A DNA stretch of 13,080 bases from a virus. Taxonomy: Duplodnaviria; Heunggongvirae; Uroviricota; Caudoviricetes. The notes under the pieces are model-generated. The model did not search any database and was not told the origin of the DNA. It saw only the letters and a program-made list of their open reading frames with translations. Positions 4,195-10,541 of this stretch are shown piece by piece (positions within the stretch are counted from its first letter, which is position 1; each line of letters begins with the position of its first letter). Where the stretch lies: the IMG/VR virus record IMGVR_UViG_2563366976_000005; one strand, given 5' to 3'. A program made the translations under genes and the position numbers.

Positions 4195-4950
4195 TTAAAC
4201 TGCTAGTTGCAATTGCATTTCAAAGCGGTCGCGTTGTTCACAATACGCAAGAGAACCAGGGCTATTGTGTGCCTCAATCCGTTCTACCATTAATGCTGCG
4301 CGTGTCTCTTTACTTGCAGGTGCATAAGCCCCAGACCAGGCTTTATCAATACCGATGTTTCGAGCGACGTTCGTACTATCTGCGCTGGCTAAGGGTAATT
4401 TTGTGAATATCAGCGGATTTAACATGCGCAATCCATGTAGTTTCGTAACCGGCTGACCATGCCCATCAACAATGTGACGAATCAGGTCTTTCATTCTGGC
4501 TACCGCAAGAGTTGGGCGCTTTACGTCATAGTCGCCACAACTACCGATAGCCACTCGCGGAAACTCATTGCACAAATGAATAAATCGCTCGTCACTTTCA
4601 TTCATGTGCCACACTGGAACGCCAGCTAGTTTTCCGTGAGGCCACTCATTCAGAAGCGCATCATTTTCCTCCTCTCCGCCATCAATAACATCCGGGATAA
4701 TGGCAAAATCGAATCCTGGGTGATTCTTCCAGCGAGCAACAAACTCGTAGTAATCGCTCCAGTCGATTTTGTTTTTGCCAGCTGCTTTCCAGGCGGTGAA
4801 TGCACCGTTGTCCAGCGCGAACGACTGACAGTATTCAGCCGCGAGATTGATCTGGCCTGAATGCGCAAAACTGATAAACGCATGTCGCCCTTTCCATGCT
4901 CTCATTGCGCACGTATCAGGAGTAATAGGCCCACCGTGGTAGTGAATCAT
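4195..4950 (-). CDS. TGT-superfamily protein, DpdA-like (putative guanine/7-deazaguanine transglycosylase)
   Basis: 251 aa from MIHYHGGP. The SD is aaaggagagtgagATG, and this start lies 1 nt after the upstream gene's stop, so I prefer it to the 4992 start. Motifs are colinear with E. coli Tgt: FALDNGAF/TDSGGFQ, IIPDVI/MIFDEC, VAIGSCG/YAVGGLA, LHGLRM/LMGVGK, ADSTNVARN/FDCVMPTRNARN. The assignment is not confirmed by a search. Confidence 0.55.
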   Translation of the reverse strand: MIHYHGGPITPDTCAMRAWKGRHAFISFAHSGQINLAAEYCQSFALDNGAFTAWKAAGKNKIDWSDYYEFVARWKNHPGFDFAIIPDVIDGGEEENDALLNEWPHGKLAGVPVWHMNESDERFIHLCNEFPRVAIGSCGDYDVKRPTLAVARMKDLIRHIVDGHGQPVTKLHGLRMLNPLIFTKLPLASADSTNVARNIGIDKAWSGAYAPASKETRAALMVERIEAHNSPGSLAYCEQRDRFEMQLQLAV

Positions 4951-4951
4951 C

Positions 4952-5359
4952 TCACTCTCCTTTGATGCGAATGCCAGTAGCGCGGATTGCATCGATGACT
5001 TCAGAAACTTTGTATGCCATTACCGTTTGGTAATCATCGTGAAAATCTGTTCGATGAAGCATGCTGCTACGTTCCGGGAGCAGTATTTCCCGCGCTTCCA
5101 GTTCTGCAATGCGCTTTTTTGCTGCTTCCAGTTCATCCAGTAATTCCAGCACGGTAGCCGGATTAGCCTTGGCAACAAAATCCCGGACTGGCTTACAATC
5201 AATCTCCGCAATGGGTTGATACGATGTGTAGCCATGCTGTCTTGTATAACTACCGTGACGAATAACGAAAAAATCACCATTTATTTTTTTAGCCTGCCAC
5301 TTATCTTCACCGGCTTTCTCTGCCGCTTCACGCAGTGCCTGAGAGTTAATTTCGCTCAC
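4952..5359 (-). CDS. Ead/Ea22-like family protein (lambda Ea22 N-terminus, divergent body)
   Basis: 135 aa with a GTG start in a GTGA overlap with the upstream stop. The first residues, MSEINSQALREAAE, and the last, GIRIKGE, match lambda Ea22 by recall. The coiled-coil segment LELLDELEAAKKRIAELE is typical of the family. Confidence 0.7.
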   Translation of the reverse strand: MSEINSQALREAAEKAGEDKWQAKKINGDFFVIRHGSYTRQHGYTSYQPIAEIDCKPVRDFVAKANPATVLELLDELEAAKKRIAELEAREILLPERSSMLHRTDFHDDYQTVMAYKVSEVIDAIRATGIRIKGE

Positions 5360-5577: not shown

Positions 5578-5629
5578 CTTTCATTAATCCCTGAATTGTT
5601 GGTTAATACGCTTGAGGGTGAATGCGAAT

Positions 5630-5653
5630 AATAAAAAAGGAGCCTGTAGCTCC
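5630..5653 (-). terminator. Putative intrinsic terminator (leftward)
   Basis: The minus strand reads ggagc-tacag-gctcc followed by ttttttatt. Confidence 0.55.
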
Positions 5654-5675
5654 CTGATGATTTTGCTTTTCATGT

Positions 5676-6159: not shown

Positions 6160-6314
6160 ACAGCTCCCCGTTTATTATTTATCTCCTCAGCCAGCCGCTG
6201 TGCTTTCAGGGGATTTCTGATAACAGAAAGGCCGGGAAATACCCAGCCTCGCTTTGTAATGGAGTAGACGAAAGTGATCGCGCCCACCCGGATATTATCG
6301 TGAGGATGCGTCAT
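6132..6314 (-). CDS. Lambda orf60a-like protein
   Basis: [61 protein letters not shown] chose the start at the ATGA overlap with the exo stop (6311..6314). Confidence 0.75.
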
Positions 6315-6991
6315 CGCCATTGCTCCCCAAATACAAAACCAATTTCAGCCAGTGCCTCGTCCATTTTTTCGATGAACTCCGGCACCATCTCGTCAAAACT
6401 CGCCATGTACTTTTCATCCCGCTCAACCACGACATAATGCAGGCCTTCACGCTTCATACGCGGGTCATAGTTGGCAAAGTACCAGGCATCTTTTCGCGTC
6501 ACCCACATGCTGTACTGCACCTGGGCCATGTAAGCCGACTTTATGGCCTCGAAACCACCGAGCCGGAACTTCATGAAATCCCGGGAGGTAAACGGGCATT
6601 TCAGCTCAAGGCCATTGCCGTCACTGCATAAACCATCGGGAGAGCAGGCGGTACGCATACTTTCGTCGCGATAGATGATCGGGGATTCAGTAACATTCAC
6701 GCCGGAAGTGAATTCAAACAGAGTTCTGGCGTCGTTCTCGTACTGTTTTCCCCATGCCAGCGCCTTAGCATTAACTTCCGGAGCCACACCGGTGCAAACC
6801 TCAGCCAGCAGGGTGTGGAAGTAGGACATTTTCATGTCAGGCCACTTTTTTCCGGAGCGGGGTTTTGCTATCACATTGTGAACTTCTGAAGCGGTGATGA
6901 CGCCGAGCCGTAATTTGTGCCACGCATCATCCCCCTGTTCGACAGCTCTCACGTCGATTCCGGTACGCTGCAGGATAATGTCCGGTGTCAT
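6311..6991 (-). CDS. exo: Lambda exonuclease (Red alpha)
   Basis: The 226-aa [68 protein letters not shown]... is lambda Exo by recall. Confidence 0.97.
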
Positions 6992-7773
6992 GCAGCCACC
7001 TTCTGCTCAGTGGCTTTCTGTTTCAGGAATCCAAGAGCTTTCACTGCTTCGGCCTGTGTCAGTTCTGACGATGCGCGAATGTCGCGGCGAAATATCTGGG
7101 AACAGAGCGGCAATAAGTCGTCATCCCATGTTTTATCCAGGGCAATCAGCAGAGTGTTAATCTCCTGCATGGTTTCATCGTTAACCGGAGTGATGTCGCG
7201 TTCCGGCTGACGTTCTGCAGTGTATGCGGTATTTTCGACAATGCGCTCGGCTTCATCCTTGTCATAGATACCCGCAAATCCGAAGGCCAGACGGGCACAC
7301 TGAATCATGGCTTTATGCCGTAACATCCGTTTGGGATGCGACTGCCACGGCCCCGTAATTTCTCTGCCTTCGCGGGTTTTGAATGGTTCGCGGCGGCATT
7401 CATCCATCCACTCGGTAACGCAGATCGGATGATTACGGTCCTTGCGGTAAATCCGGCATGTACAGGATTCATTGTCCTGCTCAAAGTCCATGCCATCAAA
7501 CTGCTGGTTTTCATTGATGATGCGGGACCAGCCATCAACGCCCACCACCGGAACGATGCCATTCTGCTTATCAGGAAAGGTGTAAATTTCTTTCGTCCAC
7601 GGATTAAGGCCGTACTGGTTGGCAACGATCAGTAATGCGATGAACTGCGCATCGCTGGCATCACCTTTAAATGCCGTCTGGCGAAGAGTGGTGATCAGTT
7701 CCTGTGGGTCGACAGAATCCATGCCGACACGTTCAGCCAGCTTCCCAGCCAGCGTTGCGAGTGCTGTACTCAT
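6988..7773 (-). CDS. bet: Lambda Bet single-strand annealing protein (Red beta)
   Basis: The 261-aa [67 protein letters not shown]... is lambda Bet by recall. A 4-nt overlap links it to exo. Confidence 0.97.
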
Positions 7774-7778
7774 CCGTT

Positions 7779-8075
7779 TTATACCTCTGAATCAATATCA
7801 ACCTGGTGGTGAGCAATGGTTTCAACCATGTACCGGATGTGTTCTGCCATGCGCTCCTGAAACTCAACATCGTCATCAAACGCACGGGTAATGGCTTTTT
7901 TGCTGGCCCCGTGGCGTTGCAAATGATCGATGCATAGCGATTCAAACAGGTGCTGGGGCAGGCCTTTTTCCATGTCGTCTGCCAGTTCTGCCTCTTTCTC
8001 TTCACGGGCGATCTGCTGGTAGTGACGCGCCCAGCTCTGAGCCTCAAGACGATCCTGAATGTAATAAGCGTTCAT
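7779..8075 (-). CDS. gam: Gam RecBCD inhibitor (98-aa GamS form)
   Basis: [56 protein letters not shown]... is lambda Gam by recall. Confidence 0.95.
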
Positions 8076-8150: not shown

Positions 8151-8357
8151 TTAGCGATTCAGGCCGTTACCGCGTCCGTCGAGAAAAACTTCCACGAGCA
8201 AATCACGGGTATAAGTGCGCTCGATGCCGCGATGCAGATAAAGCCGTCCGCGTAAATTAGCTGATGCAGTCCAGGTACCATCTTTGTGTTTGACCAGCAT
8301 TCCTGGCATGACCGCACCTCGATTAACGGTCTGCGTTCCGTAATGTTGATGAACCAT
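8151..8357 (-). CDS. KilR-like small protein (putative FtsZ-directed host-killing function), in place of lambda kil
   Basis: 68 aa from MVHQHYGTQ with a strong SD (gcAGGAGtttttATG). By recall it aligns along its full length with Rac KilR: MIAHHFGTD.., ..YIASANN..KLYI.., ..IKVFLGRDAGG... The ORF-track frame is open upstream to a TTG at 8561, but without an SD. Confidence 0.55.
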
Positions 8358-8578
8358 AAAAACTCCTGCCCGTAAGCTGGGCTGCTGAACATATAGAGAC
8401 TTCTGCGCGTATTCAGGCGGTGGATGGCCGCCGGTTGTCATAACTAAGTCGCCTCGTTGAAGCGACTGAGGTATGAAGTGTTGAGTTGATTTCAGCTGGT
8501 CACACCGACGTTCACGCGTCCGCTTCACCCCTCGCACTCCCCGAAGCCTGCTGAAATTCAAACTGCGGATCTAAGCGG

Positions 8579-8630
8579 TCATCGCAACGGTGAAACAGGT
8601 GGTTACCGTATCGTTGTGTCGTTGCGATGA
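8579..8630 (-). other. Long inverted repeat at the 5' end of the predicted pL transcript
   Basis: tcatcgcaacg (8579..8589) and cgttgcgatga (8620..8630) are perfect 11-nt complements around a 30-nt loop. The loop contains acggt/accgt and a second cgttg copy that allows alternative pairing. No U-tract follows. Confidence 0.5.
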
Positions 8631-8634
8631 ATTT

Positions 8635-8710
8635 ATTTAAAACTATAGTTGTTTTATCGTCAACAACAAAAGTTGTTTTGTCGGTTGTTTTAAATATAAC
8701 TGGTTGTATT
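8635..8710 (-). promoter_or_regulatory. pL / oL region
   Basis: The minus strand has TTGACG (8663..8658), a 17-nt spacer, then TTAAAT (8640..8635). The block GTTGTTGAC..AAAACAAC.ATAGTTTTAA is shared with pR. GTTGT/ACAAC half-sites start at 8648, 8663, 8672, 8684 and 8703. Confidence 0.6.
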
Positions 8711-8837: not shown

Positions 8838-9218
8838 TCAGTCAGCCCAACCTGATTTCGAGTTTATTTGGGTTTCTGACATTGTGTATTTCTTAATCGT
8901 GTCATCGTTAAAAAGAATAGTAAGTTCTTTTTTCGTACCGTTCGTTCCATTATGGAATAATCCATAGAATGGAATAAAAGTGGTGCCATTAACTTTTACT
9001 TTTGCAAAGGCGTACTTCCAGATCTCGTTTCCACTGTCAGTATATGAAACAGCATCAGGAGAACCAAAGTAAGATTTAACCTCATTCTTGGTTGTTTTAC
9101 CTTCCTGAAGTTTAGACTGGACACTAATTTCAGTTTCATTTTTGAGTTGCTGGTTGCCTGAAGAAGCACACCCAGCCAATACAGATGCCATCATGGCAGC
9201 GATTAGGATTTTTCTCAT
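8838..9218 (-). CDS. Prophage-encoded lipoprotein, BamE/SmpA-OmlA (BLIP-fold)-like
   Basis: 126 aa. The signal peptide carries lipobox LAGC, and +2 is Ala, which predicts outer-membrane sorting. KLQEGKTTKNEVKSYFGSPD fits the motif common to BamE-like small lipoproteins. The gene is visibly AT-rich compared with its neighbours. It occupies the rexAB position between cI and pL. Confidence 0.7.
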   Translation of the reverse strand: MRKILIAAMMASVLAGCASSGNQQLKNETEISVQSKLQEGKTTKNEVKSYFGSPDAVSYTDSGNEIWKYAFAKVKVNGTTFIPFYGLFHNGTNGTKKELTILFNDDTIKKYTMSETQINSKSGWAD

Positions 9219-9447: not shown

Positions 9448-10137
9448 TTAACCATGCTTCCTGTACGTCTGCGGCATGCTTCCAATGACCTTACCGAATA
9501 TGAACACCCGGTTCATCTCGTCTTTCTCGATCGGGTCCCACGGCGAGTAGCTCTTGTTATCAGAGATAACCAGCAGCTTATCCTTCATCATTTGAAGACG
9601 TTTTACATGGGCAGTGTCGTCGTACAGAAACGCATAGATGCCATCACCGTCGAAAGATTTAACAGTGATATCAACGAACAGCAGGTCACCTGGTTCGATC
9701 GTCCCTGACATGCTGTCACCTCGCACGTTAATGATGCGGATATTTTCCGCCTTCCTGCCATCGAACATGTGACGAGCATCGTCAAACGAGTACTCAACCG
9801 AGCGTAGAACTTCTACAAACTCACGGTTGATTACACCTGGCCCGGCACTGACTTCTATATCAAGAACGTCAATTTTGAAGTATTTGGAATGGCTGACAGT
9901 TGATTGTATTGGTTGCACTGTACTGTCTGACATATTTCCAACGCCAGAAGATAACCATTCTGCGCGCACACCCAAAGCGTTCGCGATCTCCACGATTTTA
10001 GTTGTTTGGTTAGCTTTCCCTGTTTCGATTTTCTGAATAGCAGCCTGGCTAACCCCGACCAAATCCCCAAGCGCCTTTTGTGTAAGGCCTCGCGCTAATC
10101 TGGCTTCTTTAAGTCTTTCTGAGAGTGTTGTTTTCAT
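9448..10137 (-). CDS. cI: CI-type prophage repressor (N-terminal XRE HTH, C-terminal S24 LexA-like autopeptidase)
   Basis: 229 aa. The HTH is LTQKALGDLVGVSQAAIQKIETG. The candidate Ala-Gly cleavage site is in VSAGPG. The Ser is in GDSMSGT and the Lys in HVKRL. The gene is divergent from cro. No SD precedes its ATG. Confidence 0.9.
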   Translation of the reverse strand: MKTTLSERLKEARLARGLTQKALGDLVGVSQAAIQKIETGKANQTTKIVEIANALGVRAEWLSSGVGNMSDSTVQPIQSTVSHSKYFKIDVLDIEVSAGPGVINREFVEVLRSVEYSFDDARHMFDGRKAENIRIINVRGDSMSGTIEPGDLLFVDITVKSFDGDGIYAFLYDDTAHVKRLQMMKDKLLVISDNKSYSPWDPIEKDEMNRVFIFGKVIGSMPQTYRKHG

Positions 10138-10241
10138 AGATCAAATGTACAACCAAGGTTTTATTTCATCAAACGAAAATGGTTGTTGACTAAAAACAAC
10201 CATAGTTTTAATCTTGATTCGGATTAACCACGGAGGTTGTT
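10138..10241. promoter_or_regulatory. oR / pR / pRM divergent control region
   Basis: A perfect 9-bp inverted repeat, atggttgtt-N7-aacaaccat (10179..10203), overlaps pR -35 TTGACT (10186..10191). The pR -10 is taatct (10209..10214). Candidate pRM on the minus strand is TTGATG (10172..10167), 17 nt, then TACATT (10149..10144), which places the transcription start at or next to the cI ATG. Extra half-sites are ACAACC at 10149 and GGTTGT at 10235. Confidence 0.6.
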
Positions 10242-10484: not shown

Positions 10485-10497
10485 CGCTCTTTAACAA
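10485..10497 (+). promoter_or_regulatory. boxA element (nutR position)
   Basis: cgctctttaacaa matches the rrn boxA TGCTCTTTAACAA at 12 of 13 positions. It lies between cro and the CII analogue, where lambdoid nutR sites lie. Confidence 0.65.
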
Positions 10498-10541
10498 TAA
10501 GCAATCAACTTAACAGTCAATTCAAACTAAAGGAGTCAATT

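Follow-up and report, generated by a model that had tools for sequence, protein, structure and literature searches.

A structured RNA in the pL leader of N-less lambda-like prophages is a candidate antitermination signal

The pL operon of a lambda-like prophage adjoining ybhC opens with a structured leader RNA, which we describe here from a window of 13,080 nucleotides (nt; Caudoviricetes record IMGVR_UViG_2563366976_000005, with all coordinates referring to the whole stretch). The leader, about 270 nt on the minus strand between the promoter and kil, contains a 5'-terminal stem-loop (hairpin a, 8579-8630) and a 99-nt element with two hairpins (element b, 8583-8485). Element b is a widespread and unannotated RNA with a supported structure, and its alternatives in the leader are put and boxA-like sequences. 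We propose, tentatively and as a reading that falls somewhat short of an even chance, that hairpin a and element b together serve the left operon as a cis-acting antitermination RNA, which would be analogous to put but unrelated to it. A first-pass annotation of the window had drawn attention to the inverted repeat beneath hairpin a and had listed several roles for it. The role of cis-acting antiterminator is the best supported of these for the leader as a whole, but the evidence lies in the adjacent element b, unnoticed at that stage, and not in the 11-bp stem; the hairpin itself is a modest feature.

Results

Element b is a conserved structured RNA

Element b begins about 46 nt past the predicted +1 of the window and is recognized on the minus strand (8485-8583) by covariance model R2 with 121.8 bits. 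Helix P0 pairs 8577-8575 with 8535-8533. Hairpin b1 (8541-8568, minus strand) has the form CCG-C-AGYUUG / CAGGCU-N-CGG and carries an invariant loop, AAUUUCAG (8558-8551), and hairpin b2 (8494-8532, minus strand) is long and irregular, AG-GGU...GCGGACG-loop-CGUCGGU...ACC..CU. Aligning 21 distinct sequences, which represent three or four lineages, gives 94.2% paired cells, compared with 27-40% when the 3' partners are slid. Three pairs carry compensatory changes, and the covariation score exceeds those of all 500 shuffles. Two of these pairs are in hairpin b1 (A-U to C-G, G-C to A-U in 7/21 sequences), where 98.9% of cells are paired. The third is in hairpin b2 (A-U to G-C, 5 sequences), along with several one-sided changes that preserve pairing, and in another lineage the upper stem of b2 is swapped for ACGGGC/GCCCGU. 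Element b is a real structured RNA. A further pairing, of CCGCUU (8575-8570) with AAGCGG (8528-8523), was rejected as it is unconserved, judged by eye, in the UAACGGG lineage.

Model R2 finds exactly one copy of b in each phage that carries it, always just downstream of pL (51 loci), and finds none in the N+ phages phi80, HK225, KO-TP1 and ENT1 or in put phages. The element is seen behind at least ten operator/promoter sets, that is, immunity types, phi80 immunity among them. The 283-nt leader is present in 2,231 of 5,426 complete E. coli genomes (~40%), mostly at 95-100% identity, and is unannotated in all 40 records listed. Nothing in Rfam matches the window at gathering threshold, the matches between 8100 and 8900 at E values up to 10 being at chance level; four related leaders gave no Rfam match, and no description of element b was found in the literature. 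The gene that follows b varies among phages, and no gene was found that consistently co-occurs beside it.

The roughly 330 nt after b are distinctive in one group of phages (L157, L159, L160, L162, L165, L166, L169 and L170). Here b is followed by a tiny open reading frame (ORF; MKH stop), a long conserved non-coding stretch (…AAGCGGACAGACCGCACTTCCAAGCCGCAGTAATGATG…GGTCAGGGTTAATCGAGG…) and then the next gene. This stretch may be another structured RNA.

Element b shares its slot with put and boxA-like sequences

The pL transcripts of many Enterobacteriaceae phages start with AUCGAAACGAAACAUCGACAGCUGAGCGAAGUUAGCCAGCGGCG, and that of the window with the related AUCGCAACGACACA. The shared start is followed by a boxA-like sequence (CUGCUUUUUAACAA) in phi80, HK225 and KO-TP1, by a put RNA in HK639 and CobraSix (labelled 'putL-like antiterminator RNA' in the HK639 GenBank record), and by b in L147, L149 and others. 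HK639 and L147/L149 have an identical 52-nt 5' flank. The 3' flank, TTTACCAGCAGCTCTTTGCGAGGGGCTGACGG, is common to HK639 and L149, with L147 differing by a few substitutions, as is the first gene (MADKKT...), which is a different one in L147. In phi80-type leaders b sits at the same offset as put does in HK639. What is said here of HK639 draws on its GenBank annotation and on its citation in PMC9378689.

A census of 145 leaders with the anchor CAGCTGAGCGAAGTTAGCCAGCGGCG placed a boxA-like (nutL-type) sequence in the slot of 88, put in 42 and b in 14; the remaining leader also has boxA. About 32 of these leaders, including all 14 with b, came from earlier searches, b-targeted or other, which inflates the share of b in the slot. 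The 113 newly fetched loci comprised 72 boxA-like, 40 put and 1 other, b occurring only under identifiers fetched earlier (L155-L157). In the same slot b, put and boxA-like sequences are mutually exclusive. All the other occupants are known or boxA-like antitermination signals.

The comparison with the put RNAs of HK022 made in the first-pass annotation holds for position in the leader but not for the RNA, which the put covariance model does not match. This model (R1) comprises 10 putL/putR sequences from 6 phages, scores its own members at 82-93 bits and contains the expected covariation. With filters off and E up to 10, it has no match in the window leader or in b of L147/L149. Local alignment of b with HK022 putL and putR is no better than that of shuffles, the best of 12 (p ~0.04) being a short G-rich string. 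The model null and the non-significant alignment rule out b as a put-family RNA.

Element b is unlikely to be translated

A 136-codon ORF (8561-8151, minus strand) crosses element b and the module downstream of it (module c) into kil, and its arginine-rich-motif-like reading (VKRTRERR) overlaps hairpin b2. GenBank record PV340555 annotates 125 aa of this frame as 'Kil', from a GTG at 8528, with the N terminus MKRTRERRCDQL. This N-terminal extension is probably an over-call, because RefSeq kil starts at 8357 and the frame breaks in relatives. Variable sites are spread 7/7/6 across the three codon positions, without third-position bias. In homologous b the frame is interrupted by stops (GUG AAG CGG ACG UGA in L147, GUG UAA in L155/L157) and three variants carry a frame-breaking 2-nt deletion at 8404-8403. 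The flat codon-position spread, the stops in homologues and the frameshifting deletion lead us to reject the frame as an N-like arginine-rich ORF, and element b reads as non-coding.

The left operon has terminators but no recognizable N

As the first-pass annotation had surmised, we found no N gene. The only antiterminator listed for an identical prophage in RefSeq, and for PhiR26_1 in GenBank, is Q, and PHROG and Pfam scans of the ORFs in the pL operon have no N match. PhiR26_1, which is complete and 99% identical here, grows on K-12 and has Q and structural genes of the lambda type; no N is annotated in it. Absence of cIII, also claimed, agrees with these annotations, although no search aimed at cIII was made. 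Within the window, arginine-rich sequence is confined to the leader ORF, which is not conserved as coding sequence.

The four intrinsic terminators previously listed between pL and int were all recovered on the minus strand, at 5655-5637, 2961-2941, 2930-2911 and 2734-2715. The first has an 8-bp stem followed by TTTTATTATT, the next two are in tandem (2911-2961) and the last is directly upstream of xis. A fifth terminator-like site is present on the pL strand at 6250-6228.

A search of the pL leader for boxA (GCTCTTTAACA, with up to 2 mismatches) gave no minus-strand match in 8358-8630. One candidate, CGCUUAGA at 8574-8567, bears a loose resemblance only and was set aside. On the plus strand an exact consensus boxA, CGCTCTTTAACAA, is found at 10485-10497, at the nutR position between cro and a YdaT/CII-like gene, with no obvious boxB hairpin after it. 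This boxA occurs only in loci of the window's immunity type (35 loci) and is absent from other types that share b. Because it is confined to one immunity type while b spans others, the two arms appear to solve read-through differently. N-like proteins may lie outside the pL leader, as does Gp17 of mEp021 (PMC11893012); the mEp021 system itself was discarded as a parallel, being an N-like system with no bearing on element b (PMC11893012).

Hairpin a begins at the predicted transcription start

Read by eye on the minus strand, the predicted pL promoter has a -35 element TTGACG (8663-8658), a 17-nt spacer and a -10 element TTAAAT (8640-8635). It overlaps GTTGTT/AACAAC operator repeats (8641-8700), which are present at oR too (10171-10211), in an operator/promoter region at about 8635-8700. 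A consensus promoter scan does not report this promoter, the -10 of which is without A at position 2. A homologous putative pL is annotated for HK639 in GenBank, with a -10 that ends 7 nt ahead of ATCGAAAC. The predicted +1 is A8628, two bases within the 5' arm of the inverted repeat.

The opposite strand has a promoter-like site at 8622-8649 (plus strand; TTGCGA-16-TATAGT, 9/12 matches), confined to the window's promoter type. It begins in the 3' arm of the repeat and is directed rightward into the operators; ACTATAGT is palindromic with the pL region.

The repeat (minus-strand element 8579-8630) is perfect, as first described: its 11-nt arms (8579-8589 and 8620-8630) are complementary at 11/11 positions, with 30 nt between them. 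The accompanying statement that it is no intrinsic terminator also stands; no U-tract follows, GACCGCUUAGAUCC coming next, and the terminator scan is silent there. As DNA the stem is 11 bp, and within the predicted transcript it is 8-9 bp, from 8628-8621 with 8588-8581 to 8628-8620 with 8589-8581. It is the sole perfect inverted repeat of at least 11 nt with a loop of up to 60 nt in the window. At least one such repeat turns up in 18% of dinucleotide shuffles of the window, so the repeat on its own is weak evidence. The hairpin folds as RNA with -14.0 kcal/mol (z = -3.06 relative to shuffles), and the entire 273-nt leader with z = -1.43.

Relatives of the leader were drawn from 120 viral contigs, some annotated phages and 22 further contigs. 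In the contigs and annotated phages analysed, one leader stands behind four unrelated promoter/operator sets: the window's own (type A), TTGATA-17-TATTAT in phage Lambda_4C10 (type B), TTGACT-17-TATTGT in an O157:H7 prophage (type C), and a type-B variant with a longer hairpin loop (L158/L174). Between types A and B homology starts at the first predicted transcribed base, and in types B and C (L008, L129) the stem opens with the seventh base past the -10 hexamer. With starts that are predicted only, the stem begins at the predicted +1 in three promoter types, in the window as judged by eye. Its length is 8 bp in most relatives, 9 in the window allele and 6 in type C. The ninth pair, G-C in the window, is A-U in two sequences and A.C in most; the A.C arises from an A in place of G at 8620 in 62 of the 74 unique sequences of relatives. 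The perfect 11-bp form is a minority, allele-specific one. Changes in the stem (A to G at +1, C to U at +3) keep pairing, 90.7% of cells being paired. The loop is wholly different in type C (O157), and in L158/L174 there are 38 nt between 9-bp arms, 8 more than the 30 nt otherwise counted.

The first-pass annotation had noted alternative foldings of the loop. The second cgttg and the acggt/accgt pair that would allow them are indeed present but unconserved, and conserved mutually exclusive foldings are ruled out, the inner loop structure differing in every lineage. A 5'-terminal RNA stem with a loop of no importance fits hairpin a best. The stabilizing role suggested for it accords with a stem at the predicted +1 and a free loop, but does not cover element b.

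Downstream of element b lies a separate module

Between hairpin a and kil the leader holds element b and a module of hairpins and a small ORF. A variable, C-rich, G-poor linker, AAAUCAACUCAACACUU (8476-8493, minus strand), lies at the junction of the two, and in the window nothing else separates b from module c. Some relatives (L015, L021, L112) carry a 5-nt CAACT duplication in the linker (CAACTCAACTCAACAC), and its position corresponds in N+ phages to the U-tract of an intrinsic terminator. A 13-mer similar to it, AAUCAACUUAACA, is found at 10503-10515 in the cro-cII intergenic region.

Module c (8416-8475, minus strand; 8475-8397 for the part conserved in cross-phage comparison) is composed of hairpins c1 and c2 and a small ORF. 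Hairpin c1 (8475-8439) has seven compensatory pairs and buries a Shine-Dalgarno-like GAG and the AUG at 8441-8439, and hairpin c2 is GGCGG-CCAUCCA-CCGCC (8432-8416). By its architecture module c clearly seems to govern access to a start codon. The ORF starts MTTGGHPPP, a polyproline start that suggests a leader peptide sensing translation. It stops after 21 codons in phi80 and HK225 and continues in frame into kil in the window; elsewhere its length and C terminus vary (21, 28 or 41-77 aa). The module is common to phi80, HK225 and phages of Klebsiella, Enterobacter and Citrobacter, with copies including L004 3001-3058, L005 3001-3062 and L130-L148. In the N+ phages phi80, HK225, KO-TP1 and ENT1 the feature immediately 5' of it is a terminator-like GC-rich hairpin with a T run. 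Hairpin and T run lie 3' of the gene in the N position and are present in most other listed sequences too, including the b-carrying phi80-type phages L147, L149, L155, L159, L161, L162 and L164.

The phi80-type phages also have a repeated junction, AAAGCATTTCTCCCGCATCAGCGGGTAACGACAGAGGGTAAGG, ahead of the start codons of several unrelated left-operon genes (L004 2640-2684; L005 2256-2300 and 2496-2520; L130 3270-3318; L149 about 5620-5665). It includes a small hairpin, CCCGC-AUCA-GCGGG.

Prophage context

The region of interest is identical to a prophage of E. coli strain 582. On the minus strand are int (1418-2488), xis (2466-2684), accessory genes between xis and the exo/bet/gam block, exo, bet and gam themselves (6311-8075), and kil (8151-8357), the first recognized gene of the pL operon, which encodes a 68-aa KilR-like FtsZ inhibitor (RefSeq WP_000233577.1; PHROG 294, E = 1.3e-38). 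Beyond the operators are a terminator (8830-8811), a lipoprotein gene (8838-9218, minus strand) and an S24-type repressor gene (9448-10137, minus strand), followed on the plus strand by cro, the YdaT/CII-like gene, O and P. The strain 582 prophage has an IS2 in its left operon (L001 3361-4589), which the window copy is without, and an IS21 in its nin region. One left-operon gene (4195-4992, minus strand) matches PHROG 887, 'queuine tRNA-ribosyltransferase' (E = 5e-104), and may encode a DpdA-like DNA-modification enzyme borne by the prophage.

Discussion

In the mechanism that we propose, the pL transcript would open with about 150 nt of structured RNA in three hairpins, hairpin a and then the portable two-hairpin element b, and b, aided by a, would be a cis-acting signal for processive antitermination. 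Once made, b would fold and remain with the RNA polymerase from which it had emerged as elongation continued. A polymerase modified in this way could read through the sites at 6250, 5655, 2961, 2930 and 2734 and reach xis and int without N. Stem a may cap the 5' end against 5'-end-dependent decay and let b fold independently. The antiterminator would have to persist while polymerase covers the 6 kb to xis and int. The effect on polymerase, the independence of protein and the role of a are what we infer; structure, conservation, position and mutual exclusion are observed. That b may be an antitermination signal is suggested by its slot, which alternates only with put and boxA-like sequences, by the lack of N in the face of five terminator-like sites before xis/int on the pL strand, and by its distribution, one copy per phage, always in the pL leader and absent from N+ and put phages. 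That it would act as RNA is suggested because it is structured, non-coding and has no constant partner gene.

Several points weigh against this reading. The argument is positional, and the slot could accept cassettes of other roles. Covariation in b draws on only three or four lineages and few independent events, and that in hairpin a is not significant across relatives because the stem is nearly invariant. Since b has neither a put-model match nor sequence similarity to put, the mechanism is not transferable by homology. The start of the pL transcript is predicted, from a promoter read by eye. There is no second copy of b downstream of pR (nhmmer in the window; R2 in 51 loci). Finally, a factor supplied by the host, or one encoded elsewhere and acting in trans, may be involved.

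Such a factor is central to an alternative that we consider unlikely, in which b, with or without a, is a nut-like loading site for an unrecognized protein that binds the RNA and modifies polymerase. This protein might come from the host, as the Nus complex does, or be an N analogue that the phage encodes at another locus. Most often the slot is indeed filled by a boxA-like (nutL-type) sequence, of a kind that works with proteins, but the pL strand of the leader has none. The perfect boxA at the nutR position means that the right arm probably uses Nus factors; this boxA is restricted to one immunity type, however, whereas b is found in at least ten. N-like proteins are hard to recognize and, as in mEp021, may lie outside the pL leader. 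Even so, the leader ORF, with the one arginine-rich stretch of the window, has its frame broken in homologous b, no gene is consistently beside b, and the complete PhiR26_1 has no annotated N. The thought that the leader itself encodes a small N-like protein (ORF 8561-8151, GTG at 8528, arginine-rich N terminus) draws on the one phage record with a 125-aa 'Kil' from that GTG and on the resemblance of KRTRERR to the motif of lambda N. The 7/7/6 spread of variable sites, the stops and 2-nt deletion that interrupt the frame and the RefSeq kil start at 8357 leave it with next to no likelihood.

The leader could also be unrelated to termination, a being an ordinary 5' stabilizer and b an element for stability, processing or translation control, or the body of a small RNA. 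Stabilizers of the ompA type reportedly need a stem at the 5' end of the transcript, from work by Emory, Bouvet and Belasco in 1992, and hairpin a has its stem at the predicted +1 in every promoter context. The leader is long, adjacent module c controls start-codon access, and the leaders of E. coli prophages are known sources of Hfq-bound small RNAs. We nevertheless judge this explanation improbable: the variable gene downstream of b argues against gene-specific translational control, there is no terminator-like 3' end after b that would release a discrete small RNA, and the alternation of b with only put and boxA-like sequences is left unexplained. For the repeat itself two further explanations apply. 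It might be a chance feature without function, given its frequency in shuffled windows and the lack of significant stem covariation, but retention of the stem at the predicted +1 across four promoter contexts, with replacement of its loop, and the folding z of -3.06 make this very unlikely. The first-pass annotation had raised a protein-binding site acting in DNA over the transcription start. The repeat does overlap the predicted +1 and abut the operators, but its arms recur behind four operator/promoter sets that are unrelated and have different repressors, which makes a repressor site unlikely, and the arms lie 41 bp apart centre to centre around a spacer that varies in sequence and length; we give this idea almost no weight.

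To our knowledge, put is the only family known to provide RNA-only processive antitermination in phages, and it has been a model for the reprogramming of RNA polymerase by nascent RNA. If the antitermination reading of a and b is true, a second, unrelated RNA in the same slot would mean that this solution arose more than once, and would offer a new structure for mechanistic work. It would also explain how recombination, excision and integration genes are expressed past several terminators in common N-less prophages, a group with relatives in O157:H7 and O104:H4 strains. Irrespective of this, a 99-nt element stands unannotated in thousands of genomes and, in one phage record, is mis-annotated as the N terminus of Kil. 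The boldest form of the proposal is that b and the 5' hairpin represent a third class of phage RNA that acts without a phage protein, binding its own polymerase and conferring terminator resistance while structurally unrelated to put, and that it would provide early antitermination for the N-less lambda-like prophages of ~40% of complete E. coli genomes, O157:H7 and O104:H4 included. This we regard as possible but doubtful.

Comparison with known systems

Structured leaders that act on the polymerase of their own transcript, or on a termination factor, include the Bacillus EAR element and the Rho-antagonizing RNA of Salmonella mgtCBR. The pL leader RNA is unrelated to these in sequence, Rfam finding nothing in the window or related leaders. 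With the hairpin in the ompA 5' untranslated region it shares an unconstrained loop sequence and a stem that, in each promoter context, begins where the transcript is predicted to start; this likeness is limited to hairpin a and leaves element b unaccounted for. With the nut/N system of lambda it shares the early left leader position, a boxA-like sequence as the commonest alternative in the slot and, in the window, a boxA at the nutR position. Unlike lambda, the pL leader has neither boxA nor a boxB-like short hairpin with a purine-rich loop, and no N gene was found in the phage.

The closest parallel is put, which promotes read-through in cis, with no phage protein, via the zinc-binding domain of the beta-prime subunit. 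Element b is without detectable sequence or structure homology to put, with different conserved loops (AAUUUCAG), and is longer, at 99 nt, or about 150 nt with hairpin a, compared with about 73 nt for put. HK022 has a putR, whereas b has no copy downstream of pR. The putL structure of HK022 begins at +3 (PMC9378689). Both put and b consist of two adjacent stem-loops, but sizes, loops and junction differ in b, so that the resemblance is one of general architecture only. As with put of HK022 and HK639, element b is in the pL leader of an N-less lambdoid phage, near the 5' end of the transcript and with terminators downstream. As in HK639 and CobraSix, it is present only as a left-operon copy in the loci examined, and phi80-type leaders place it in the same slot, between the same flanks, as the put RNA of these two phages.

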